NCBI GenBank assembly: GCA_965372365.1
Contig: CBDVCA010000001.1
Span: 5,810-69,809 of the forward strand
Length of the DNA: 64,000 bases
Direction: 5' to 3'
From: an uncultured bacterium
GTDB taxonomy: Bacteria > Planctomycetota > Phycisphaerae > SM23-33 > FEN-1343
Shown: positions 44,514 to 58,032 of the stretch, in pieces
Numbering within the stretch: the first letter of the stretch is position 1
Layout: the number at the start of each line of letters is the position of its first letter
Notes under the pieces: generated by a model
The model's input: the letters and a program-made list of their open reading frames with translations, nothing else
Told to the model about the DNA's origin: nothing
The model's database searches: none
Position numbers and translations under genes: made by a program

Positions 44514-44633
44514 TCCGTCTTGTCTATACGTACTTCCCGGCCTGATAGGTGAAGCCCCTTTGGCTTCATTTAACCCTTACGGGCCAATCCGCAGCCGAAA
44601 CCATTTGTCTCATATACGGTTAGACGACGGCGA

Positions 44634-45161
44634 CTACTCCTCGCCGTCCTCTTGTTTCTCTTCGATCGCCTTCAGCAGCCCGGCAATAACGCTGCCCGGG
44701 CCCAGCACGGCGCCGACCAACGTGGCGCCGGGAGCCAAGGCGATGCTGCTAACGCGGCCAAGGGCTTCGCTCCGTGTGGGGTACTTGCTCAACTCCTCGA
44801 TTCGATCGGAACCGAACAGCTCACCCTCCATCAGGGCGCCCTTGACTTCGAGGCCGGGGATCGTCTTGGCGCGATCAACCAACTCGCGAACGACGTCCAC
44901 GACACTCTCACCGCCATAGGCCAAAGCGCACGGACCCTCGAGCAACGCGCCGGCTTCGGCGATGCCGATATCCTCAAACGCCTTGCGGGCCATGGCGTTC
45001 TTGACGACCATGACGCGAATGCCCTTCTCGGCCAACTCGCCGCGAAGGCTGTTGTTGGTGTTGCCGTCAACGCCCATCACGCTGACCACGGCCACTTCGC
45101 TGACGCCCTCCAGCTGCCGGGCCAACTCCTTGCGAATCAGGTTCTTAATCGGTTTGCTCAT
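44634..45161 (-). CDS. rplJ: 50S ribosomal protein L10
   Basis: L10 family sequence; 10-nt gap to rplA. Confidence 0.9.
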   Translation of the reverse strand: MSKPIKNLIRKELARQLEGVSEVAVVSVMGVDGNTNNSLRGELAEKGIRVMVVKNAMARKAFEDIGIAEAGALLEGPCALAYGGESVVDVVRELVDRAKTIPGLEVKGALMEGELFGSDRIEELSKYPTRSEALGRVSSIALAPGATLVGAVLGPGSVIAGLLKAIEEKQEDGEE

Positions 45162-45171
45162 GCCGCACCGC

Positions 45172-45855
45172 CTATCTTACGTCCACCAGCACCGCGGGGC
45201 TCATCGTCGCGGTCAGGCAGGCTTTCTTGAAATAAGTACCCTTGGTCGTCGTGGGCTTGATCCGCTGGACGTAGTCGATGAAGAACTCGGCGTTCTCGAT
45301 CAACTTGACAGCGTCGAAGCTGACCTTGCCGACCGCCACCGCCAGGTTGCCGCCGGAGTCGTTGCGAAACTCCAACTTGCCGGCGCTGTACTCGGTAACG
45401 GCCTTGGCGACGTCGGGGGTCACGGTGCCGCTCTTGGGGCTGGGCATCTTGCCCTGGGGACCCAGAACCCGACCGAGGCGACTGACGTTCCGCATCATCT
45501 GCGGGACCGCGATCGCCACGTCGAAATCAAGCCATCCGCCCTGAACCTTCTTGATCAGATCGGCGCCGCCGGCCTCGATGGCGCCGGCCTCGATCGCGGC
45601 CTCGGCGTCAGGGCCTTCGCAGAACGCGATCACGCGTTTGGTGGCGCCGACGCCGTGGGGCAGCGAAATGGCGCCGCGGATGGCCTGGTCGGCCTGTTTG
45701 GGATCGATGCCAAGATGCAGCACCAATTCGACGGTCTGGTCGAACTTGGTCTTGGCGAACCCCTGAATACACGCGACCGCATCTGCAACGCTCACCGGCT
45801 CGGCCGGCACCTTTTCGATGTCGCGGCGGTAACGCTTACCATGTGATGTGGGCAT
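45172..45855 (-). CDS. rplA: 50S ribosomal protein L1
   Basis: L1 family sequence. Confidence 0.92.
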   Translation of the reverse strand: MPTSHGKRYRRDIEKVPAEPVSVADAVACIQGFAKTKFDQTVELVLHLGIDPKQADQAIRGAISLPHGVGATKRVIAFCEGPDAEAAIEAGAIEAGGADLIKKVQGGWLDFDVAIAVPQMMRNVSRLGRVLGPQGKMPSPKSGTVTPDVAKAVTEYSAGKLEFRNDSGGNLAVAVGKVSFDAVKLIENAEFFIDYVQRIKPTTTKGTYFKKACLTATMSPAVLVDVR

Positions 45856-46007
45856 TTTTCAGCTCCTTTCGCCGTCGCCCGACGGCTTCCACTGCAATCC
45901 GGGATCCGTGGTCAGATCCACATGCTTCTCTAGTAGGCGTCGGCGCCCGACGCCAACCCAACGCCGACCGCGCCGTTGACAGGCCGCGGCCGATACCGGG
46001 TGTAGCT

Positions 46008-46433
46008 TTACTGCGCGATTTCGATGCCCATACTGCGGGCCGTGCCCATCACCTGCAGGCACGCCGCGTCGAGGTCGAACGCATTCAGGTCGCCCATCTT
46101 CGTCTCGGCGATCTTGCGGACCTGGTCCATCGTCACCGAACCGACCTTCTCCATGTTCGGCACGCCGGAACCTTTGGCGACGCCGGCGGCTTCCTTCAGC
46201 AGAACCGCAGCCGGCGGGCTCTTGCACTCGAAAGTGAAGGTCTTGTCGGCGTACACGGAGATAACCACCGGGATGGTCATCCCGTTGGCCTCACGCGTTC
46301 GCTCGTTAAACTGGGAGACGAACTGACCGATATTCACATTGTGCTGGCCCAGAGCCGGCCCGATCGGGGGAGCGGGTGTCGCCTGTCCGCCGGGCGCCTG
46401 GAGCTTGATGACTGCTTTGACTTCTTTCGCCAT
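46008..46433 (-). CDS. rplK: 50S ribosomal protein L11
   Basis: [35 protein letters not shown]…. Confidence 0.93.
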
Positions 46434-46556
46434 GATTCACTATCTTTCGGTTTGGGTCGTTCGGGCCTCGCAAGGCAGTCCCCCCCGACCTTCAAAACGC
46501 CACGCCATTTCGAGCCGCACTAGTCCACTTCAGACCAAAACGCCAGGCAAAGAAGC

Positions 46557-47111
46557 CTACGCCTTTTCGATCTGCCAGTACTCCAACTCGACCGGGGTCG
46601 CCCGGCCAAAAATCGTCACGATCACGCGAACCAATCCCTTGTCGGCCAGAACTTCATCGACCGTGCCGTCGAAGTTCTCGAAGGCGCCTTCCTTGATCTT
46701 CACCGCGTCGCCCTTGTCGAACTCGACCTTCAACGCCGCCGCTTCTTCGGGACGGTCGATCTGCATGAGCATCTTGTCCACGTCCGCCGGCGCCATCGGG
46801 GTCGGCTTGCCCGCCGAACCGATGAAATCGCCAACGCCCATGGTTTCCTTAATCAGGAACCAAGCCTCTTCGCCAATCGACCCATCCTCGGCAAGATCCA
46901 TCTCCACGAACACGTACCCGGGGTACATTTTCCGCTCGACGTATTTCTTATCGCCCGGCTTGCGCTGCGGCTTGGGCCGGCGCTCGGTCGGAACGATAAT
47001 TCGGCCGATGTTCTCTTGGAGACCTTCGATCTTGACCTTGCGAATCAGGGCGTCCCTGACCTTCGCCTCCTTGTTGGAGGCCACACGCAAGACGTACCAC
47101 TGTTTGCTCAT
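46557..47111 (-). CDS. nusG: Transcription termination/antitermination factor NusG
   Basis: NGN plus KOW domains (…WYVLRVASNKE…). Confidence 0.92.
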   Translation of the reverse strand: MSKQWYVLRVASNKEAKVRDALIRKVKIEGLQENIGRIIVPTERRPKPQRKPGDKKYVERKMYPGYVFVEMDLAEDGSIGEEAWFLIKETMGVGDFIGSAGKPTPMAPADVDKMLMQIDRPEEAAALKVEFDKGDAVKIKEGAFENFDGTVDEVLADKGLVRVIVTIFGRATPVELEYWQIEKA

Positions 47112-47118
47112 CGTTCGA

Positions 47119-47508
47119 CTATCCTAGTTGGTGCAGAACACCGATCCACTTGAAGAAGCCCTGGAAGACGGTATCCACAATGAACAACAGAGCCGCCAAC
47201 AGGAACGTGGCGAACACCACCACTTTGGTCGAGCCGATCACTTCCTTGCGGCTGCTCCAGGCGACCTTCTTCATCTCGCCTTCGGTGGCGATCAGGAAAT
47301 CGGCCATCTTCGCCCGGTTGACGAAAACGAACATCACGTAGGCAATCACCATCACCACGCCGAACGGAACGAGGTATTGGACCCAAGGGCTGAAACTTTC
47401 GAGCCGCTCACTGAGCCAGTGCCCGCCAATAACGCCGAGGATCATCCCGCCGACAAATGTGCCGACGCGAGTGTGTTTGCCTTGGTTTTTCTTATAGATT
47501 TCAAACAT
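47119..47508 (-). CDS. secE: Preprotein translocase subunit SecE (long, 3-TM form)
   Basis: Sits in the conserved position before nusG; hydrophobic helices. Confidence 0.8.
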   Translation of the reverse strand: MFEIYKKNQGKHTRVGTFVGGMILGVIGGHWLSERLESFSPWVQYLVPFGVVMVIAYVMFVFVNRAKMADFLIATEGEMKKVAWSSRKEVIGSTKVVVFATFLLAALLFIVDTVFQGFFKWIGVLHQLG

Positions 47509-47643
47509 AGTTACAACCGCCTATCGCCATCGGGCCACCCGCCGCCGGCGTGCATCGCCAACGCCAGGCCCCTGGGGTCAATCCAGTCGACTGCAGCTCA
47601 CCACGTTACGGCCACGTCCTCACAACTTTGCGGCGTCCATCAC

Positions 47644-47716
47644 CACGGCAGGGAGGACTTGAACCCCCAACCTGCGGTTTTGGAAACCGCTGCTCTGCCA
47701 ATTGAGCTACTGCCGT
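47644..47716 (-). tRNA. tRNA-Trp (anticodon CCA)
   Basis: Cloverleaf folded by hand: acceptor ACGGCAG/CTGCCGT, D GCTC/GAGC, anticodon stem GCGGT/ACCGC with loop TTCCAAA, T arm GGGGG-TTCAAGT-CCTCC. No CCA is encoded. Confidence 0.85.
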
Positions 47717-47833
47717 ATCCGACCCGCCGTGCGGCGCGGCCCCGCCGTGCGGAGGCGCGCCACTGGGCGGCAGGTCGATATCCTGCTCCGGACGGCTCAT
47801 CCGGGGGGGAGGAGCCGCCCGCTATCGGGTTGT

Positions 47834-48001
47834 CTACTTCTTCTTGGTCTTGTGCACCGTGTGCTTACGGGTGCGCGGGCAGAACTTCTTGATTTCCAGC
47901 TTGCCGCCGCCGCCCTGAGTGCGGACCTGAACACGGTAGTTCAGATCCCCACAGTCGGTGCACTGTAGCCACACGTATTCCCGTGGCGAACCTTTGGCCA
48001 T
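47834..48001 (-). CDS. rpmG: 50S ribosomal protein L33 (55 aa; below the ORF-track cutoff)
   Basis: My translation: MAKGSPREYVWLQCTDCGDLNYRVQVRTQGGGGKLEIKKFCPRTRKHTVHKTKKK. Confidence 0.85.
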   Translation of the reverse strand: MAKGSPREYVWLQCTDCGDLNYRVQVRTQGGGGKLEIKKFCPRTRKHTVHKTKKK

Positions 48002-48005
48002 GATG

Positions 48006-49214
48006 TTACTCCAGGATCTTGGTCACGACGCCGGCGCCGACGGTGCGGCCGCCTTCGCGAATGGCGAAACGAAGACCGTCTTCCATGGCGATCTCGGTAT
48101 TGAGCAGTTCAACCATGATGGTGATATTGTCGCCGGGCATGCACATTTCGGCGCCGCCGAGCAGGTTGATGGTTCCGGTCACGTCGGTCGTGCGGAAGTA
48201 GAACTGCGGACGATAGCCGCTGAAGAACGGGCTGTGACGACCGCCCTCTTCCTTGGTCAGCACGTAGACCTCGGCCTCGAACTTCGTGTGGGGGGTGATC
48301 GAACCGGGGGCCGCCAACACCTGCCCGCGTTCCAGATCGGACTTCTCGACGCCGCGGAGCAGGCAACCGACGTTGTCGCCGGCCTGGCCCTGGTCGAGCA
48401 GCTTGTTGAACATCTCGACGCCGGTCACCGTCGTCTTGCGAGTTTCGCCCAGACCGACGATCTCGACCGTCTCGCCCACCTTGACGACACCGCGTTCGAT
48501 ACGGCCGGTGCCCACGGTGCCGCGACCCTTGATGCTGAAGACGTCTTCGATCGGCATCAGGAAGGGCTTGTCGATCTCACGCTCGGGCTCGGGAACGTAC
48601 GAATCCAACGCTTCCATCAACTCGTTGATGCAGGCGATGGCTTCGGGATCCTCGGGGTTGTTCATCGCGATCGACGCGGCGCCCTTGATGACGGGGCAGT
48701 TGTCGCCGTCGAAATCGTACTTGCTGAGCAGTTCGCGAACTTCCAGCTCGACCAGCTCTAGCAGTTCCTCGTCGTCGACCAGGTCGACCTTGTTGAGGAA
48801 GACGACCAGGGCCGGCACGTTCACCTGGCGGCTGAGCAGCACGTGCTCGCGCGTCTGGGGCATCGGGCCGTCGGCGGCCGACACCACCAGGATCGCCCCG
48901 TCCATCTGGGCGGCGCCGGTGATCATGTTCTTGACGTAATCGGCGTGACCGGGGCAATCTACATGAGCGTAGTGCCGCTTCTCCGACTCGTATTCCTGGT
49001 GACTGGTCGCAATCGTAAGGATCTTGGTCGCATCGCGACGACCCTGGCTTTCGGAGGCCTTGGCGACTTGATCGTACGACACGCCTTTGGCCAAACCCTT
49101 GGCGGCCTGCACCATTGTAATGGCAGCGGTCAGTGTGGTCTTGCCGTGATCCACGTGACCGATCGTGCCGACGTTAACGTGAGGCTTCGTTCGTTCAAAG
49201 ACCTCCTTGGCCAT
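48006..49214 (-). CDS. tuf: Elongation factor Tu (the only tuf in the window; tufB-type context)
   Basis: …[14 protein letters not shown]…DCPGHADY…. Confidence 0.95.
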
Positions 49215-49283
49215 TTTGTTGCTCCTGTAGAAACGCCGCTATTCGTGGGTCAAGACGACAGTTATCCTAACCGTTTCATTTCA

Positions 49284-49328
49284 GTCCAAACGACCTTCGT
49301 CCAAACGACCTTCGTCCAAACGACCTTA
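49284..49328. repeat. Three tandem copies of a 15-bp unit gtccaaacgaccttc in the tRNA-Thr(GGU)/tuf spacer
   Basis: Seen directly in the sequence. Confidence 0.8.
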
Positions 49329-49409
49329 CCGACTCTTCCGCCGGCAGCGCCGACGGCCGGGTGCAAACCCGTGCGTCACAAACACTATCGAGCGGGTTCT
49401 CCGCCCACG

Positions 49410-49481
<72 letters not shown>

Positions 49482-49640
49482 ACACGCCGCGCATCCCCGA
49501 GGGTACACCGCCCCTAGCGACCCTAGGGTGAACGGGGCATTATGCCTCAACGAAAGCGACTGTCAAATGAAAAATTATGCGCCCGACGCACAAAATGCCT
49601 CCAGGCAAGGGACCACGGGCCAAACACGCAGGGCCGCAAT

Positions 49641-49756
49641 CCGCCGACAAACGACTGAACGCCGCCGAAAAACAGCTGAACGCTACCGACAAACGACTGC
49701 ACGCTACCGACAAACGACTGCACGCTACCGGCAAACGACTGCACGCTACCGAAAGG
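49641..49756. repeat. About 5.5 tandem copies of a 21-bp unit (c[tc][ag]ccg[ag]caaacgactg[ac]acg) in the tRNA-Gly/tRNA-Thr(GGU) spacer
   Basis: Seen in sequence. Shares the core caaacgac with the 15-bp repeat at 49284..49328. Confidence 0.8.
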
Positions 49757-49795
49757 GGCCGCAAGTTGCCAAAGGGGCCGCGGATCGATCCGAAC

Positions 49796-49868
49796 AGCGG
49801 GCGACCGGGGTCGAACCGGCAACAACTAGCTTGGAAGGCTAGTACTCTACCAATTGAGCTACGCCCGC
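49796..49868 (-). tRNA. tRNA-Gly (anticodon UCC)
   Basis: GCGGGCG-TA-GCTC…CTAGC-CTTCCAA-GCTAG…GCCGG-TTCGACC-CCGGT-CGCCCGC-T. Confidence 0.85.
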
Positions 49869-49980
49869 AAGCAACGCCAAACCCGCCTCTCAGCCGCGGC
49901 CAGCCTCTGCCACAGACCCGACATACGGACCGGTCGGCCATCTCGTCGCACGGCAAGCCGCGGCAACGCCGCGACCTTAC

Positions 49981-50063
49981 TGGGAGCGGGTGGATTCGAA
50001 CCACCGAAGGCGTACGCCGTCAGATTTACAGTCTGATCCCTTTGGCCACTCGGGCACACTCCC
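49981..50063 (-). tRNA. tRNA-Tyr (anticodon GUA; long variable arm)
   Basis: GGGAGTG-TG-CCCG…TCAGA-CTGTAAA-TCTGA-CGGCGTACGCCTTC-GGTGG-TTCGAAT-CCACC-CGCTCCC-A. Confidence 0.85.
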
Positions 50064-50111
50064 ACGAACGTCTCGCCTGCAAGCGAGCGTAGCAATAAAG
50101 CATGATCCATG

Positions 50112-50143
50112 CGGCGTGTCAACCGGCTACACGTCGTTTTTTT
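50112..50143 (+). terminator. Candidate intrinsic terminator on the + strand (cggcgtgt-caaccggct-acacgtcg plus T7), antisense to the tRNA operon
   Basis: 8-bp stem (one G-U) followed by TTTTTTT. No + strand gene was identified upstream. Confidence 0.35.
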
Positions 50144-50185
50144 GCAGAAACCGCGTTCAATGCCGATATTCCACACGCCGCGTCA

Positions 50186-50257
50186 AGCCAGCGATGGGAT
50201 TCGAACCCGTAACCTCCGCTTTACAAAAGCGGTGCTCTACCGTTGAGCTACGCTGGC
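50186..50257 (-). tRNA. tRNA-Thr (anticodon UGU)
   Basis: GCCAGCG-TA-GCTC…CCGCT-TTTGTAA-AGCGG…ACGGG-TTCGAAT-CCCAT-CGCTGGC-T (one A-C mismatch in the T stem). Confidence 0.8.
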
Positions 50258-50503
50258 GACCGTCCCCCGCCCGATCCTTCGAATCGGCCGTTTCGCCCCG
50301 ACCCCTGCACCCAAACTCCGCCGCAGCGTCGGGGCGACAACGTTAGCCGAACACGACCCTTGGGTCAAGGGGGCGATGATTGTCGATTGCCAATTGAACG
50401 ACCAACGTCGCTGGCCGGTGATCTATCCCCCTTCGCCGATCGTACCTCTTCCACCGACGACGACCGAGTTGTATGATGGAACGCATCGCACAGGAGACCG
50501 ACC

Positions 50504-51058
50504 ATGCCCATCTCAACCCAAGACCGCCAAACCCTGCTGACGCTCGCCCGCTCATCGGTGACCCACGCCGTCACCGGCGATCCGCCGCCCCAAGCCCCCC
50601 CGCCGTCGGAGATCCTCACCGCCCAACGCGGCTGCTTCGTCACGCTCACCAACGCCGGCCGCCTTCGCGGCTGCATCGGAACCTTCAGCCCCCAAGGCCC
50701 CCTGGTCGCCATGATCCCCCAAATGGCGATCCACGCATCCCGGGATCCGCGATTCACCCACAACCCTATTACCGCACATGAGTTGCCGCAGATCCACGTG
50801 GAGGTCTCGGTCCTGAGCCCCTTAGAGCCCATCGACGACCCGCTCTCGCTAACCGTCGGCGTACACGGAATCTACATCACCCAAGGCCATCGCGGCGGCT
50901 GCTTCCTCCCCGAAGTCGCCACCGACCAGGGCTGGGACGCCGAGCAGTTCCTCACCCAATGCTGCGCCGGAAAAGCCGGCCTCGCACCCACCGCCTGGCA
51001 AGACCCCGCCACCGAAGTCCGCGTCTTCACCAGCGAGAAGTTCGGCGAAGGCGACTGA
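50504..51058 (+). CDS. AMMECR1-domain protein
   Basis: GCFVTLTNAGRLRGCIGTF motif. Confidence 0.8.
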   Translation: MPISTQDRQTLLTLARSSVTHAVTGDPPPQAPPPSEILTAQRGCFVTLTNAGRLRGCIGTFSPQGPLVAMIPQMAIHASRDPRFTHNPITAHELPQIHVEVSVLSPLEPIDDPLSLTVGVHGIYITQGHRGGCFLPEVATDQGWDAEQFLTQCCAGKAGLAPTAWQDPATEVRVFTSEKFGEGD

Positions 51059-51252
51059 TCTCGCCACGACCCGCGGCGGCCGGTCGCAACCAAACCAGGG
51101 GGGACAGACCGGATCGGCCGAACGGCCTGCCGCCCCTGTCGCGTGTCAAGCACACGTTTGTGGCTGCAAGGGTTACAGCCTATCTTCATGCCATTCGCTC
51201 CTGACCCCTTTCCCGCCAACGGCCTCAGAACGCCCTGAAAGGGCGAAGGCGT

Positions 51253-52092
51253 TTAGCCCGGATATTTCACACAGCGTGGTGGTTCCCCTATATCGCGACG
51301 GCCTTACTGTTTGGTATAACAAGAGTTAGCAAGATCTCCACCCACGCAGAAAGGCCGTCAACGATGACAGAGCGTCACCAAAAGCCCCTGCTGTTTTCAA
51401 GTCTTCTTCGGAAGAAGATCGTGGCGGATTTCAACGGTGACGACATCACCACCGATGGGGGTTTGCCGCTGATCCGCGAGGTGGACCGGAGGATCGGCCT
51501 GATCGACGCGATCGATAGCGCTATCGACGACCCCCGTTGCCCGTGGCTCATCGAGCACGACCAGCGAACGATCCTGGCCCAGCGGATTTTCGCTATCAAC
51601 GCCGGATACGAAGACCTCAACGACCACCAGACGTTGCGGAACGATACGCTCATGCAGGCCATCACCGACCGGCGGCTCAAGGTCGGACAGACCGAGCACG
51701 ATCCTCTGTCGAACCCACCGACTCTGTGCCGATTGGCCGGCACGGAACTGGCTACGGCGCAGGCGACCACGATCCGTCTGAAACTGCTGAAGATCGGGGG
51801 CCGCATCGTGCGGTCGGTTCGCCGTATCGCGATCCACTTGGCCGGCGGCTATCCGTTGCAGGCCCTATTCCACACGGTCCTGCACAATCTCCAGGAACGG
51901 AGATTCACCGCCGGCGGGCGCGACCTGGGCTTGCCGGAACCCTCTACATAACCTCCGGACAATTCGATTCTGACAGCGGGGGAAAGGGGGTTGTTCGTGC
52001 CGAGCGGGCGGCTATGCAAGCAAACCCAACTCCATATGCCCAAATGACCTCGCGACTCCCATCGCCAACGCTGTGTGAAATATCCGGGCTAA
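51253..52092 (+). mobile_element. Internally deleted IS1380-family insertion sequence (about 840 bp) with 25-bp perfect terminal inverted repeats ttagcccggatatttcacacagcgt
   Basis: IRL 51253..51277; IRR 52068..52092 is its exact reverse complement. It carries a 195-aa transposase remnant. No target-site duplication is evident. Confidence 0.7.
51364..51951 (+). pseudogene. IS1380-family DDE transposase remnant: N-terminal about 150 aa fused to the C-terminal about 45 aa, with the catalytic core deleted
   Basis: N-terminal family pattern FNGDDITTDGGLPLIREVDRRIGL…INAGYEDLNDHQTLRNDTLMQ…LSNPPTLCRLAG. C-terminal pattern KIGGRIVRSVRRIAIHLAGGYPLQALFHTVL. Full-length family members are about 430-470 aa. 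A possible internal promoter ttactg-N-tataac and GAAAGG SD lie upstream. Confidence 0.65.
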
Positions 52093-52182: not shown

Positions 52183-53898
52183 CTATCGCTCGTCGTCCTT
52201 CGGTACGTTCAAATACGCTAACGCCTGCTCCAACACGTCCTTAACAACCGGCCCTGCGACGGTCCCGCCGTAGTGGCCAATGGACCTGTCGGGCTTGCGA
52301 ACGCTCACAAGGCACACCAGACGCGGCTTGGCCAGCGGGGCGCCGGCGATGTAGCTGGCGGTAAACTGGCCAGCCGAATACGGGGCGATCTGGGCGGTGC
52401 CGGTCTTGCCGAAACTGCTCCAGCCGTCGAGACGGGCGTGATTTCTCCCCGTCCCGTCGGTCGGCACGCGGCCTAGAACGTCGGTGATGAACCTTCGGCA
52501 CAGTTCCGGGCCAAGCACGCGCCCGACGACGGTCGGCTCGTCGTTATCGAGAACCACCGACCCATCGGGGCTGACGATCTTGCGGATAAGCTTCGGTTGC
52601 AGCAGCAGTCCCTCGTTCGCCAACGCCGCGAAGGCCATCGTCACCTGCAGTCCAGTGACGGCCACCTCCTGCCCCATCGGCACCGACCACGTCGAGTCGC
52701 GCCGCCACGTCCGCAGGGGATTGATCTGCCCGGTCACTTCGCCGGTGAGCTCTATGCCCGTCCGCCGACCGAATCCGAAGGCCTTGACGGCCTCGTAGAG
52801 CCGCCGGTTCCCCAGCCGTTCGCCAATCCGGGCCATGCCGATATTGGAGCTCTTGTAGACGACCGCTTCGATCGACAGTTTGCCGTAGGGATGCGCGTCG
52901 TGCAGCGTCCGCCCGCGACGGCAGCGGTAAGCGCCATTGTAGCAGAAGATCTCCTCGCCCCAGTTCACGACGCCGTCAGCCAGAGCGACCGAGGCGATGA
53001 ACGGCTTGAAGATGCTGCCCGGTTCGTACATATCGGCCACCGCCCGGTTGCGGCGATGGTCGCTTTCGCTGCGACCGAACGCGTTGAGATCGTACGTCGG
53101 CACGTTGGCCATGGCGAGAATCTCACCGGAACTCGGATCAACCACCACCCCCAGGGCCGACTCGGCGGCGAACTTCGTAACCGCTTCGGCCAAGGCCTCT
53201 TCGAGGCGTCGCTGGATGACCACGTCGATGGTCAAATACAGATGATCGCCATCGACGGGGGCCGTGTACGCTTCGGGTTTGTTCCAGATCGGCCGACGGG
53301 CGGCGTCGGTGAGCATTTCGTTGGCCCCGTCGACCCCGGCGAGATACTGCTCGGCGGCCTTCTCGACGCCCTCCAGGCCCGCGCCGTCGACCCCGGCGAA
53401 CCCCACCACGTGAGCGGCCAGCGACCCGTTGGGGTAGCGTCTCCGCCATTGGCGCTGAATGCCGACGCCGGTCAGGTCCAAGTCGCGTATACGTTGAACT
53501 TCGGCGTCGGTCAGATCACGCTTGACCCACACGAACCGCCTGGAGCGGCGAGTCACGAGGCGCTGGTGGATGGTGTCGGCCTCCAGCCCCAAGGCCGCCG
53601 CGAGGGCGTCGGATACCTCTCGAAAATCCTCTGCGCCGATAATCATCGGATCGGCGAAGCAACCGGGCGATTGATGACTGGCGGCCAGCAACTCATATCG
53701 GCGGTAGCTGCGGCCGTAGATGTTGCCGCGACGGGCGGGGATCTTCACCGTCATCCGCTGCTGGATGGCCGCCCGGCGGACCATGGCGTCATGATGGGTC
53801 TGCTGGAAGGCGAACAGACGGCCGCCTAAGGCGATCAGCGACAGACACAGGACGGCGAACACCAGATGATGCGTCAGGGCGGATCGTTCGGCAGCCAC
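52183..53898 (-). CDS. ftsI: Class B penicillin-binding protein (transpeptidase), likely FtsI given its dcw-cluster position
   Basis: SxxK (GSIFKPF), SSN (KSSNIG), KTGT (GKTGTAQ). Confidence 0.8.
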   Translation of the reverse strand: MAAERSALTHHLVFAVLCLSLIALGGRLFAFQQTHHDAMVRRAAIQQRMTVKIPARRGNIYGRSYRRYELLAASHQSPGCFADPMIIGAEDFREVSDALAAALGLEADTIHQRLVTRRSRRFVWVKRDLTDAEVQRIRDLDLTGVGIQRQWRRRYPNGSLAAHVVGFAGVDGAGLEGVEKAAEQYLAGVDGANEMLTDAARRPIWNKPEAYTAPVDGDHLYLTIDVVIQRRLEEALAEAVTKFAAESALGVVVDPSSGEILAMANVPTYDLNAFGRSESDHRRNRAVADMYEPGSIFKPFIASVALADGVVNWGEEIFCYNGAYRCRRGRTLHDAHPYGKLSIEAVVYKSSNIGMARIGERLGNRRLYEAVKAFGFGRRTGIELTGEVTGQINPLRTWRRDSTWSVPMGQEVAVTGLQVTMAFAALANEGLLLQPKLIRKIVSPDGSVVLDNDEPTVVGRVLGPELCRRFITDVLGRVPTDGTGRNHARLDGWSSFGKTGTAQIAPYSAGQFTASYIAGAPLAKPRLVCLVSVRKPDRSIGHYGGTVAGPVVKDVLEQALAYLNVPKDDER

Positions 53899-53905
53899 GG
53901 ATCGT

Positions 53906-54223
53906 CTACCTCCTCAAGTCCATGGCCGTCGCGCCGGTCGCGATGGGGACGCTTCGATCGGCCAGGACCTCCTCGGCGGGGCCGACGGGCTGTAGATCGG
54001 GTCGCAGCATGCGAAGGCCGAGGTCCTGGGCGCGTGCGGCAACCGCGTCGATGGCGGTCAAGTCGCCGAGCCGAACGTCGAGATCCCACAGGGTCGATCG
54101 TTGGGAGAGCAGCCGGCTTTGGAGACGATGGATCTGGTGCTGGGCGGCGATCTCCTCGTGGCGGCAGGCGACCAGCCCCAAGGCGACGGCCGTCAGTCCC
54201 ACGATGGCGAAAGCGATACGCAT
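53906..54223 (-). CDS. Cell-division protein FtsL-like (single TM plus coiled coil)
   Basis: Small bitopic protein directly upstream of ftsI; there is no sequence-level proof of identity. Confidence 0.45.
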   Translation of the reverse strand: MRIAFAIVGLTAVALGLVACRHEEIAAQHQIHRLQSRLLSQRSTLWDLDVRLGDLTAIDAVAARAQDLGLRMLRPDLQPVGPAEEVLADRSVPIATGATAMDLRR

Positions 54224-54269
54224 GCAGAAGATCCTCGTTGGGGCGTCGCCGCCCGCTCGTTGACGTCGG

Positions 54270-55007
54270 TTACTCGGGTAGGACCAGTACGGCGCCGACC
54301 CGAAGTTGGTCCGGATTGGCGATGGTGTCGCGATTGAGCTGATACAGCGCCGTCACCGCCCGGTGACTGCTCGAGCCAATCGTCTTTCGGGCGATCGCCG
54401 TCAGCGTGTCGTTCGGTTGAACGGTATAGGTCGCCCTCGGACGCCTGGCGGCCTGCTGACTGCGTTCGAGTTCAGACAGATACTGTCGCACCTGCGGGCC
54501 ATCCATCACGCGGACCTGCCCGGCGTGCGAGTCGGCCGCGACGCTGACCAGGGCGGGGATTCGCAGCTTCTGGCCGGGTCTGACCTGGTTGGGATTTCTC
54601 AATACGTCGCGGTTGGCCTCGAAGATACGCTGGTACTCGCCGGCGCAACCCGGCCCGTACACCTTCACGGCGATCTTGCTGAGCCGATCGCCCTCGACAA
54701 CGGTATACATCCCCATGATCGGCTGGGGGGCGGGGGTCGGCCGCGCTGGAGCCGGAGCGATCACCGCCACTGGCGCCGGGGCTCGCGGATCGGCGACCTC
54801 GGACGGATCGGGGCTGCGCCATCGCGGCAGCACGACCGTCATCGCCTCCAGGCGAACCACCTGCTCGGCGGCGCCGGGATCGACCGGCAGCACAACGGCG
54901 CCGGGGGCCTGGGCGATCTTGTCGGTCCTGGCCTCTGAAAGAATAACGCCAAAGCAGATTATGAAGCCCAAGCCTACCAGCAGGGCGATTTTCGACTCCC
55001 GTGTCAT
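54270..55007 (-). CDS. Membrane-anchored protein with two LysM domains
   Basis: YTVVEGDRLSKIAVKVYG…KLRIP and YTVQPNDTLTAIARK…VLVLP. Start chosen at MTRESKIALLVGLGF; the track ORF extends to 55091 and would overlap rsmH. Confidence 0.7.
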   Translation of the reverse strand: MTRESKIALLVGLGFIICFGVILSEARTDKIAQAPGAVVLPVDPGAAEQVVRLEAMTVVLPRWRSPDPSEVADPRAPAPVAVIAPAPARPTPAPQPIMGMYTVVEGDRLSKIAVKVYGPGCAGEYQRIFEANRDVLRNPNQVRPGQKLRIPALVSVAADSHAGQVRVMDGPQVRQYLSELERSQQAARRPRATYTVQPNDTLTAIARKTIGSSSHRAVTALYQLNRDTIANPDQLRVGAVLVLPE

Positions 55008-55072
55008 CGGAACAGCTCCATCGGTGAAGACCACGAACTGCGCCCGGCCGAACCGGCCCCGACGCCGTCGGA

Positions 55073-55981
55073 CTACAGACGCTCGACGCATCGCAGCTTG
55101 GCGCTGCGACTGCGCGGATTGCTCTGTAATTCCTCATCGTCAGGAACCATAGGTTTGGGCGTAATGATTTTTGCCAATTGGGCGGATTTCATGGAAGAAA
55201 ATGCATGTTTGACGCGACGATCCTCCAGGGAGTGGAAGCTGATGATGACCGCCCGACCGCCGGGGACGAGAATATCAGGTAGATACCCCAACAGAGCGTC
55301 CAACTCGCCCATCTCGTCGTTGACGGCGATACGAAGCGCCTGGAACGTCTTGGTGGCCGGGTGAATCCGGCTCTTCCCCCGACCGCCGACGGCTCGCTTG
55401 ACGATGTCGGCCAGCTCCCCGGTTCGCTCGATCGATCTGATCTTGCGTGCGTTCACAATGGCCCTGGCGATGCGTCGACTGCGATGCTCATCGGCGTTGC
55501 GATACAGCAGGTCCGCTAACTGCTGCTCGTCGAGCCTGTTGACCAACTCGGCCGCGGTCGGCCGATCGCTGTCGACGTCCATCCGCATGTCAAGCGGGCC
55601 GTCGCCGGCGAAACTGAACCCCCGCCGCGGGTCATCCAGATGCGTGGACGCCACACCCAGATCGGCCAGCACGGCGTCCACACGCTCTACCCCCACCTCC
55701 CTGAGCACCTCCGGCGCCCGGGCAAAACCCGAGTGGAACATCCGCACCCCCACCTGGGAACGTTCGGCTAATGCGTCCAGGCGGTTCTTGGCCAGCCGAA
55801 GATTGCCCTCATCTTGATCGATCCCGATCAGGGTCGTCTCGGCGCCGGCGGCGGCCAGCAACGCCGCCGCGTGTCCCGCCAACCCGACCGTGCAATCCAC
55901 AATCCATCGCGCCGCGGCCGGCCGGAGCAACTCAACCACCTGACCCAGCATGACCGGCGTATGCGAAAGAGGTTCGGACAT
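55073..55981 (-). CDS. rsmH: 16S rRNA (cytosine1402-N4)-methyltransferase
   Basis: MraW family motifs (…DCTVGLAGHA…DLGVAS…). Confidence 0.88.
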   Translation of the reverse strand: MSEPLSHTPVMLGQVVELLRPAAARWIVDCTVGLAGHAAALLAAAGAETTLIGIDQDEGNLRLAKNRLDALAERSQVGVRMFHSGFARAPEVLREVGVERVDAVLADLGVASTHLDDPRRGFSFAGDGPLDMRMDVDSDRPTAAELVNRLDEQQLADLLYRNADEHRSRRIARAIVNARKIRSIERTGELADIVKRAVGGRGKSRIHPATKTFQALRIAVNDEMGELDALLGYLPDILVPGGRAVIISFHSLEDRRVKHAFSSMKSAQLAKIITPKPMVPDDEELQSNPRSRSAKLRCVERL

Positions 55982-56105
55982 GAAACGAATCCACCGCCTT
56001 GTAATTAATCAGCGCCCATACTCAGAACGTGCGCCCCCGACCCGGCCTCCGTGCCGAGTCATGACGCGCGTACGCTGTCCCGGGCAGGATCCATGGAACA
56101 GCGTC

Positions 56106-56342
56106 CTAGACCGTCAACGACCTGACCCTGGCCTCAAGCTCAGGAGAAAAACACACCCGGGCATACTCATCCCCCAGCGCTTGAACGCGCGCCAACCGCT
56201 CGGCCAGATTCAGCAGGCGCCGCCGGGAAGTTCCGGTGGGAACCCCGGGGGCCGTCGGGTCGGCTTGCAGTTCGGTAAGCATCGAGCCGCGGCTTCCTTG
56301 CCTAGTCACGGGCTTACGCTGGGCTGACTGAAGAATGAGCAT
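56106..56342 (-). CDS. Hypothetical small protein (78 aa) in the mraZ/rsmH spacer
   Basis: ORF only; no recognisable motif. Confidence 0.2.
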   Translation of the reverse strand: MLILQSAQRKPVTRQGSRGSMLTELQADPTAPGVPTGTSRRRLLNLAERLARVQALGDEYARVCFSPELEARVRSLTV

Positions 56343-56417
56343 GACGGAATCCTTTCACTCCGGGCGGTTCAACCGCCGGTATCCACTGCCTGACCCGAAT
56401 GCTCCCGCCTCGGGCCG

Positions 56418-56891
56418 CTACGGCGCCGGCGGGGATCCATCCCGCGCCAACGCTTCACCCATTTCCAACAGAGCCTCGTCGTACATCGGCAAATGCTCGG
56501 CGATAAACGCCTCCCAATCGCCCCGGGGCCATATCTCGATATGGTCGTCGTGACCGACCAAGGTCACCGACGCAGCCATCGCCGCACGCTCGACCGACTT
56601 CTCCGGCAGCACGACCCGGCCCTGCTTGTCGCACTTGAGATACCGGGCCATGGCGAAGAACAACCCCATCTTGCGGCCGCTTCGAGTCGGGAACGGCGTC
56701 CGCTTCAGTGACGCCGTCAGTTCTCGGTAATACCGGTCCGGATACAGCCACAGGTGGCGATCCGACCCGAGAATCAAAAAGAAGCCCTCACCGTCAGTAG
56801 ACGGGTCGATCTGATCCCGCAATGCCGCGGGAACAGCCAGACGACGCTTGTCGTCAATTGCCTGATCGAATTCGCCAACGAACAATGCCAT
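56418..56891 (-). CDS. mraZ: Transcriptional regulator MraZ
   Basis: Two DxxxR SpoVT/AbrB-like repeats (DDKRRLAVP; DKQGRVVLP). Confidence 0.88.
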   Translation of the reverse strand: MALFVGEFDQAIDDKRRLAVPAALRDQIDPSTDGEGFFLILGSDRHLWLYPDRYYRELTASLKRTPFPTRSGRKMGLFFAMARYLKCDKQGRVVLPEKSVERAAMAASVTLVGHDDHIEIWPRGDWEAFIAEHLPMYDEALLEMGEALARDGSPPAP

Positions 56892-57261
56892 CGAAGTGCC
56901 TCATCAACCACTGACTGGGATTGACAGGGAAATTACCCCATTTATAGGGATAGCTCAAATGAAAAATCCAAGAAAGTGGAAAATCGGGCTAAAGATTTTT
57001 CGGCCGCGGGGTCAGAAGCCAACAAAGCCCCCATCAGGCGCCGATGGTGCTCGGGGAGCCACTGCATATAGAGGATGGGCCCAGGGATTGCCGACACCCC
57101 CGAAGTGCAGATTTCCCCTGAAAGACGCCTCCCTCAGAAGCCCGACGAGCAGGGCGGCGGCTCCACGCGCCGGCATCCGCACAGGGCCATGGCTACAGAC
57201 AGACTCATCGTCAGGAGGCTCCGGAGGCTTGGCGCCCCATGATCGCGGGCATCTGTTTGCA

Positions 57262-58032
57262 TCAGCATGGCCCCCTCAGGTCGAATCGCAGCGATTTCAG
57301 CCCCTCCATCCGGTCCGAATCGGTCAGGTCCACATGCAGGGGCGTAACGCTCACATACCCCTGGCCAAGGGCCGCCACGTCGGTATTGGCGGGCGGGTCG
57401 TGAAAACCGTACTCGTCGGTCAACATGTAGCACGCGCGGCCGCGATCGTCGGTCGACGCGGCATAGGTCTCCCAAATACCCGCCACGGATTGCCGATCCA
57501 CACGCACGCCCCGAGGCGGGCCGTTGTCCTGACAGGGCAGGTTCACGCTGACCAGTCGACCCGGGGCCAGGTCGCCGGCCAGCAGCGTATCGAGCACCGC
57601 CAGGCAATAGCCGGCGGCGAGGTCGAAATCGGGTTCGACGTCGGCCAGTTCCTGGCTGAACGCCACCGCCCGGGCGCCCAGGATCGCCCCCTCGGCCGCG
57701 GCCGCCACGGTGCCGCTGTAGAGAACATTGATCCCCACGTTCGCGCCGGGGTTGATCCCGCTGAGCACCAGATCGACCTCACCAACCAATTCACGCCGGG
57801 CCAGTTTCACGCAGTCGGCGGGGCGGCCGTCGACGCTGAATCCCCAGAACGCCCCGTCCCTTTGGACCCGCTCGACGGCGAGCGTATCATGCAGCGTGAT
57901 GCCATGACCGGTCGCCGACTGCGGCGCCGCCGGTGCGACCACGAACACCTCGCCGAGCCGCTGGGCCGCATGTGCGAGAGCGATCAAGCCGGGCGCCAGG
58001 ATGCCGTCGTCGTTTGTGAGTAGGATTCGCAT
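57262..58032 (-). CDS. surE: 5'/3'-nucleotidase SurE
   Basis: MRILLTNDDGI…. Confidence 0.9.
   Translation of the reverse strand: MRILLTNDDGILAPGLIALAHAAQRLGEVFVVAPAAPQSATGHGITLHDTLAVERVQRDGAFWGFSVDGRPADCVKLARRELVGEVDLVLSGINPGANVGINVLYSGTVAAAAEGAILGARAVAFSQELADVEPDFDLAAGYCLAVLDTLLAGDLAPGRLVSVNLPCQDNGPPRGVRVDRQSVAGIWETYAASTDDRGRACYMLTDEYGFHDPPANTDVAALGQGYVSVTPLHVDLTDSDRMEGLKSLRFDLRGPC

Follow-up and report, generated by a model that had tools for sequence, protein, structure and literature searches.

IS1380 and ISEcp1 are examples of the IS1380 family of insertion sequences (IS), which is represented by the profiles Pfam PF13701 and NCBIfam NF033539. Truncated transposases that act as inhibitors are exemplified by Tn5 Inh and by KP of the Drosophila P-element, the latter being an internal-deletion derivative whose protein lacks catalytic function. 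The recognised eukaryotic counterpart of IS1380 is piggyBac (PMC5718144), the ends of which have the layout TTAA/CCC...GGG/TTAA (PMC10140906). Miniature inverted-repeat elements (MITEs) were proposed to arise from IS by internal deletion and to be mobilised in trans (PMC3189936).

The DNA analysed here is a 64-kb stretch (the window) from an uncultured planctomycete. A perfect 25-nt inverted repeat (51253-51277 and 52068-52092) flanks a 195-aa ORF on the + strand (51364-51951), and in the whole window only these two matches to the repeat were obtained at up to three mismatches, with 0 expected by chance. The original prediction placed an element between the AMMECR1 gene and ftsI, about 1 kb from a tRNA cluster, and the gene and tRNA coordinates agree with this. 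The element is intergenic between two convergent genes, an AMMECR1-domain gene (50504-51058, + strand) and a gene for a class-B penicillin-binding protein (FtsI-like, ftsI; 52183-53898, − strand). Its right end lies 90 nt after ftsI, and four tRNA genes (Thr, Gly, Tyr, Thr; 49409-50257) next to tuf are located approximately 1 kb from it. Based on its 21-bp termini and on comparison with multi-copy relatives, the element itself extends from 51257 to 52088 (832 bp). Judged from these and the following sequence comparisons, it is almost certainly an internal-deletion derivative of an IS1380-family IS of about 1.63 kb. This assignment together with a hybrid origin or rearrangement at the site is the best overall explanation for the locus, with a probability of roughly 0.85. 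The element is an unregistered member of the family in deletion-derivative form, an ordinary non-autonomous IS derivative that is catalytically dead. Little is at stake with a dead IS copy between convergent genes, and the position at a break of the dcw cluster and the features of the clade are the only points of some interest.

The ORF matches PF13701 (DDE_Tnp_1_4) with an E-value of 5.5e-43 in two stretches, the better of which aligns ORF residues 12-125 with profile positions 2-107 of 435. It also matches the NCBIfam IS1380 family transposase profile NF033539 (E 1.9e-28), but with 99 bits it stays under the 180-bit cutoff because the middle of the transposase is missing. For comparison at the DNA level tblastn was applied to about 160 related loci, each encoding relatives of the ORF (79 from species-representative genomes and 80 from metagenomes). 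ORF residues 1-124 and 124 to approximately 180 match sites about 795 bp apart in essentially every full-length copy, usually in the same frame. Full-length relatives measure 1.59-1.66 kb and carry a single gene for a transposase of about 450 aa; the clade that they form is common in Planctomycetota. The ORF joins the N-terminal 124 aa of an IS1380-type transposase in frame to its C-terminal 71 aa. Its N-terminal segment (51364-51735, + strand) corresponds to residues 1-124 of full-length relatives (tblastn, 50-79% amino acid identity, about 150 loci), and its C-terminal segment (51736-51948, + strand; tblastn) to the last 64 or so transposase residues, followed by a short tail.

L002, a contig of 1.9 kb from a Planctomycetia MAG, carries a complete element whose terminal repeats begin near positions 160 and 1757. 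Its transposase comprises 453 aa from the family start MTEC..., covers PF13701 positions 2-432 of 435 and matches PF01609 (DDE_Tnp_1) over aa 152-381. Aligned with this protein, the window ORF has no counterpart of L002 aa 125-389, with ...PPTLCRL running into AGTELATAQ..., and its C-terminal segment begins with the equivalent of L002 aa 390, the last matching residue being aa 453. The 265 extra residues of full-length relatives thus sit between ORF residues 124 and 125. When intact full-length copies were aligned, the missing segment was found to hold the whole PF01609 match as well as the conserved motifs DFDAT, R[GA]DSGF and ENRIKE, which we take to be the DDE triad, given where they lie and what is generally known of such transposases. 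The two claims of a half-size IS1380-family element with an in-frame N/C fusion and of a lost DDE core are therefore borne out, the former by the profile matches and by the spacing of the two halves in relatives, the latter by the absence of L002 aa 125-389 including the PF01609 region. The 195-aa product would be unable to cut or join DNA.

Like the IS1380 family, the locus shows profile matches in both the N- and C-terminal parts of the ORF (50-79% amino acid identity to full-length members) and CC(C) termini. It differs from the family in its length of 832 bp (approximately 1.5-2 kb for IS1380 elements, 1,592-1,672 bp in most relatives), in lacking the intact DDE domain of an autonomous element, in its score below the NCBIfam cutoff and in the absence of the usual 4-5-bp target-site duplication. 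The ends of the parent are kept and transposase function is lost, as is typical of a non-autonomous derivative.

Relative to the intact relatives L002, L086 and L089, 795 bp or 265 codons are missing, from which a length of about 1,627 bp results for the parent element. The closest full-length DNA relative found, L080, is a 1,679-bp Logan contig from another sample (run SRR14865926) with 88% DNA identity, and its transposase gene is itself disrupted. Element positions 2-484 align with L080 1-484 and element positions 479-839 with L080 1295-1655, each at 88% identity, and the C-terminal segment of the ORF is 92% identical to L080 at the amino acid level. The 3′ untranslated part of the element (51952-52067, + strand) follows L080 colinearly as far as the right end, again at 88% nucleotide identity. 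The two alignments overlap by six bases (element 479-484, L080 479-484 and L080 1295-1300), by which the deletion junction is located within a GATTGG microhomology at 51731-51736 (+ strand). At this junction the window reads ...CTGTGCCGATTGG followed directly by CCGGCACGG...; the left site of L080 reads CCGATTGG followed by AGAAC, and its right site GGGATTGA followed by CCGGCACGG. A full-length allele would run on beyond GATTGG into ...GGAGAACCGC.... The microhomology GATTG(G), 5-6 nt in length, has the same codon phase at both sites, and the fusion product is therefore in frame. We infer that the deletion arose by slippage or by microhomology-mediated joining inside one copy. As a side observation, L080 contains a 16-nt palindrome, GTCCGCCGCGGCGGAC, at 783-798 and 1255-1270 inside the transposase gene, the first of which terminates a called 231-aa N-terminal ORF. 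This palindrome is absent from the window and from all loci other than L080 and L081, the latter being an independent ENA assembly in which one of the sites recurs (878-893).

Both ends of the element are intact and mutually perfect, as had been stated. The proposed 25-bp terminal repeats hold only in part: pairing over 25 nt is perfect, but according to multi-copy relatives the true terminal repeat comprises 21 bp and the remaining 4 bp are target-site bases. The left repeat (CCCGGATATTTCACACAGCGT; 51257-51277, + strand) is the perfect complement of the right one (52068-52088, − strand). The repeats begin with CCCGGATATTTCA, as do those of about 130 relatives, and the first 13 nt of the left repeat recur unchanged at the ends of multi-copy full-length relatives. 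An exact search with a 21-mer of the terminal repeat gave no match in the metagenome collection. One IS is present eight times in a single MAG (L020-L028); its copies agree fully from CCCGGATATTTCA... through ...TGAAATATCCGGG, and the four bases outside vary by copy but are the same on both sides in seven of the eight (CTAA, TTAG, CTAG, TTAA). Over the 129 elements counted, YTAR makes up 93% of the flanking tetranucleotides (CTAG 87, TTAG 62, CTAA 49, TTAA 41). The clade is characterised by CCC...GGG termini and a 4-bp YTAR target duplication. Flanks that differ but both fit YTAR were found in 8 of 66 copies embedded in longer contigs (about 12%, long-read MAGs included) versus 34 of 63 IS-sized short contigs.

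In the window the left flanking tetranucleotide is TTAG (51253-51256) and the right one CTAA (52089-52092). Both are YTAR target-site sequences outside the element, and they are reverse complements of each other by coincidence and not a direct repeat; the apparent 25-bp repeat arises because of this. The view that no target duplication is visible holds, since the clade normally leaves identical 4-bp YTAR sequences. Its non-matching flanks indicate that the window copy did not arrive by simple transposition. The clade ends, YTAR/CCC...GGG/YTAR with a 4-bp duplication, resemble those of piggyBac in sequence layout; different from piggyBac are the degenerate target (YTAR and not TTAA alone) and the transposase of about 450 aa. 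Carry-over of donor flanks in the manner of piggyBac was set aside as a source of the mismatched flanks: it predicts mostly mismatched flanks, but 55 of the 66 embedded copies have identical ones, which argues against routine carry-over in this clade.

On the far side of the element from ftsI lies a block consisting of AMMECR1, tRNA-Thr/Tyr/Gly/Thr and tuf (48006-51058), and on the ftsI side a dcw block with surE, mraZ, rsmH, a LysM protein gene, an ftsL-like gene and ftsI (52183-58032, − strand). The closest available FtsI relatives, L165 (66% amino acid identity) and L166 (64%), are encoded in an intact dcw cluster. In L165 the order is surE, a gene for 361 aa, mraZ, rsmH, LysM protein, ftsL-like, ftsI, murE, murF, mraY and ftsW, and from rsmH on L166 is arranged likewise. 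An interval of about 135 nt separates ftsI from the start of murE in both, with murF and mraY coming next. The window keeps the L165 order from surE to ftsI on the − strand (58032 down to 52195), and a search of its 64 kb detected no murE, murF or mraY. The sister strain L163 described below also has the tuf-tRNA-AMMECR1 block, as probably does L164, a 69% AMMECR1 relative with an uncharacterised upstream gene and unscanned tRNAs. Next after AMMECR1 in L164 come genes for an SDR and a CotH protein, neither of which was found in the window. By gene order the element sits on a synteny breakpoint, as the two blocks are not adjacent in the closest available relatives, although these are distant (64-69% amino acid identity) and the breakpoint could predate the IS.

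The sister strain is represented by contig L163 from another sample (ERZ23498442, SAMN18200495), which is 97.8% identical to window positions 44557-51494. It has the same left junction as the window and stops 238 nt inside the element. Since the left junction is common to both, it is real and the insertion is older than the split of the strains. Comparison of L163 6750-6994 with window 51253-51494 revealed two differences in 241 nt, one in the 3′ arm of the leader stem (ACAG versus GCAG) and one at the conserved Gly26, which is kept in L163 (GGC; window GAC). An ftsI of about 98% identity was looked for in the sister sample and not found. The original prediction had suggested a recent deletion or a MITE-like derivative; the insertion, being common to strains that differ by 2.2% in DNA, is not very recent.

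Recombination between two IS copies classically leaves such a picture: an IS at the seam of two conserved blocks with a different target tetranucleotide on either side. From its flanks and gene order we give about an even chance to the window copy being a hybrid of two IS copies that was formed by IS-mediated rearrangement. One copy would have inserted after AMMECR1 (target TTAG), giving the present left end, and a second one after ftsI (target CTAA), giving the present right end; recombination between the two would then have joined the AMMECR1-side left end to the ftsI-side right end. We favour an inversion or translocation over a deletion, since the latter would have taken out the DNA in between, presumably with murE, murF and mraY. 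The 795-bp internal deletion would be an event separate from the recombination that mixed the flanks. A single deletion between two direct copies, which would account for the internal deletion and the flank mismatch at once, is unlikely given the same inferred loss of murE, murF and mraY. Neither a full-length master nor a reciprocal hybrid copy was found in the 64-kb window or in the collections, which do not contain the source genome. The element marks a probable IS-mediated break of the dcw cluster in an uncultured planctomycete, with ftsI set apart from murE-murF-mraY, or an assembly misjoin that users of the contig should know of. A real rearrangement and an assembly chimera each imply that the lineage has or had at least two copies of the element; explanations other than these two are together about as probable as the chimera.

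An assembly chimera would presuppose a genome with two or more copies of the short element, itself real, in which the flank next to AMMECR1 and the flank next to ftsI belong to different copies and were put together only by the assembler. The two genes would in that case lie apart in the genome, and a regular target duplication could be present at each true copy. This is possible but somewhat doubtful. The excess of mismatched YTAR flanks on IS-sized short contigs (34/63) over embedded copies (8/66) shows that assemblers readily stitch flanks, and the join coincides with the synteny break. Furthermore, the sister assembly breaks inside the element, 238 nt from its start, and the IS ORF is absent from the Logan source that holds both neighbouring proteins; these two observations fit a repeat in these genomes. 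Nevertheless, the left junction recurs in an independent assembly, and real hybrids may exist, as the roughly 12% of mismatched copies embedded in long contigs include long-read MAGs. A second copy, moreover, was not seen in the 64 kb.

Simple insertion of one full-length copy between an already adjacent AMMECR1 and ftsI, with loss of the middle in situ and decay of the duplication by two transitions (T to C and G to A), is improbable. The insertion is old enough to be common to strains 2.2% apart in DNA, and one-base mismatches of the duplication are known in relatives (TGAG/TTAG in L070). Two changes within 4 bp are nevertheless set against none in the 42 bp of terminal repeats and a strain divergence of about 2%. 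Both changed positions still fit YTAR, as is expected of two independent target sites, and the site is a synteny breakpoint.

Even less probable is that the 832-bp unit was mobilised in trans by a full-length relative into its present site in the manner of a MITE. Both termini are intact and the same as in active multi-copy relatives, and the general view of MITEs as internally deleted IS mobilised in trans (PMC3189936) would accommodate such a step; like MITEs, the element is an internally deleted IS with both terminal repeats in place. It differs from MITEs, which are typically below 300 bp and non-coding, in its 832 bp, in its 195-aa ORF and in having kept leader and 3′ end, and also in being a single copy as far as seen in the 64-kb window and in lacking a duplication. 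Transposition in the clade leaves an identical 4-bp duplication, which the window copy does not have, and the GATTGG junction is unique in the protein collection. MITE-like spread survives only by way of the assembly chimera, where the data imply at least two short copies. For the deletion derivative as such, mobilisation in trans is conceivable from its structure, as both ends, the leader and the 3′ end are kept, and its movement would depend on a cognate full-length transposase provided in trans. There is no sign of past mobilisation: no duplication, no second copy in the window and no master were found, and the best relative is 88% identical and disrupted.

Short relatives of the ORF bear on whether it belongs to a separate protein family. 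About fifteen database proteins of 170-250 aa cover 87-96% of the 195-aa query in protein searches, and each has a junction of its own (among others, LVET/LRRV in P0002 and P0004, ENRV/KAQAG in P0003, SPPTG/AAAYL in P0023, GRIA/CSVRR in P0024, DFDAT/ELERA in P0027, ENR/IKEQQ in P0106). Because of these differing junctions they are independent deletion derivatives and not one short protein family. End-to-end alignment of the ORF with such a family would have spoken against a deletion derivative, and the short proteins found, each with its own N/C junction, leave that assignment standing. Further derivatives, in which other parts are lost, were recognised at the DNA level in L082, L005, L004, L018 and L058. 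Internal deletion is recurrent in the clade, and the derivatives are a small minority of the approximately 160 loci. Several junctions coincide with short peptides that the transposase contains in duplicate (VLVET, ENRI); these entail DNA microhomology in the same phase, so that in-frame fusions result automatically. The exact 195-aa product is unique in a collection of 5.8 billion proteins (one member, one contig). Multi-copy matches spanning query residues 1-187 were rejected as a conserved mobile short-protein family, since they are full-length copies in which tblastn over-extended the N-terminal match. The MAG CAIYVX01 carries both the full-length copy L002 and a different deletion derivative of the same IS, L005.

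The recurrence of in-frame N+C fusions in the clade would be explained if the fused protein kept the parts for end binding and multimerisation and interfered in a dominant-negative manner with full-length copies of the IS1380 clade, which would make it a bacterial equivalent of KP. This seems very unlikely. As with the KP repressor, the window element is an internal-deletion derivative with a non-catalytic protein; in contrast to Tn5 Inh and KP, a near-invariant Gly of the ORF is mutated, and selection or spread is not evident. Among 48 positions with at least 90% conservation in the family, the ORF carries a different residue at five (C4R, G26D, L37I, A79N, S117N), and G26D alters a Gly present in 129 of 130 relatives and in the sister strain. 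These departures fit relaxed constraint better than a selected regulator. An AlphaFold2 model of the 195-aa protein is fairly confident (pLDDT 79, pTM 0.73). A Foldseek search of the model against the PDB gave no informative match (best E 0.6), and a PDB sequence search with a full-length relative gave no match. That the fusion has been selected as a regulator, which would bind the IS ends or the transposase and damp transposition like Tn5 Inh or the P-element KP repressor, is the least likely of all readings: the ORF is intact and in frame, its model is fairly confident, several independent in-frame N+C fusions occur in metagenomes and dN/dS against L080 is 0.25 in the N-terminal and 0.17 in the C-terminal part, but the protein search is biased towards in-frame fusions, which same-phase microhomologies (VLVET...VLVET, ENRI...ENRI, RL/GL) give automatically, derivatives are few among the loci, five conserved positions including G26 are changed and the dN/dS values mostly reflect the history as a full-length gene.

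The window element keeps the complete 110-nt leader with a conserved stem-loop (51297-51359, + strand), detected as an inverted repeat and by covariation, in addition to the 3′ end. The 5′ arm (51297-51313) belongs to a segment about 65 nt upstream that is joined by the stem to an SD-like GAAAGG and the bases just before the ATG; the 3′ arm (51343-51359) includes this GAAAGG and stops 4 nt short of the ATG. In 47 diverse copies, compensatory changes were observed in 14 of 14 pairs, and 85% of cells are paired versus 34-47% when the partner is slid. The covariation score of 0.424 compares with 0.193 in shuffles, none of 500 shuffles reaching as high. An Rfam search of the leader returned no family, only chance-level matches, and a scan with consensus promoter and terminator models found no sigma-70 site and no terminator in the window copy. 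A possible own promoter may nevertheless lie at 51291-51320 (+ strand), with a −35-like TATCGC (51291-51296) and a −10-like TATAAC (51315-51320). These boxes keep their position across the 110-nt leaders of the clade, where one precedes and the other follows the 5′ arm. Transcripts reading in from outside would then be the only ones with both arms and would hence be blocked in translation, in analogy to IS10 and IS50, for which read-through transcripts have been described as blocked in such a manner. The comparison set provides rules that ease the annotation of such elements and their derivatives in this IS1380 clade: ends of 21 bp, 4-bp target sites of the form YTAR and a leader hairpin with covariation that covers the ribosome-binding site. 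The leader of the clade measures about 110 nt (109-113 nt in 104 of 107 distinct leaders), and that of Thiodiazotropha copies about 90 nt. Dozens of copies are present on the Thiodiazotropha chromosome OZ242974 (L057, L060, L063, L064, L071 and L078 among the loci), and several Thiodiazotropha copies are inserted back to back, with neighbours sharing one CTAG.
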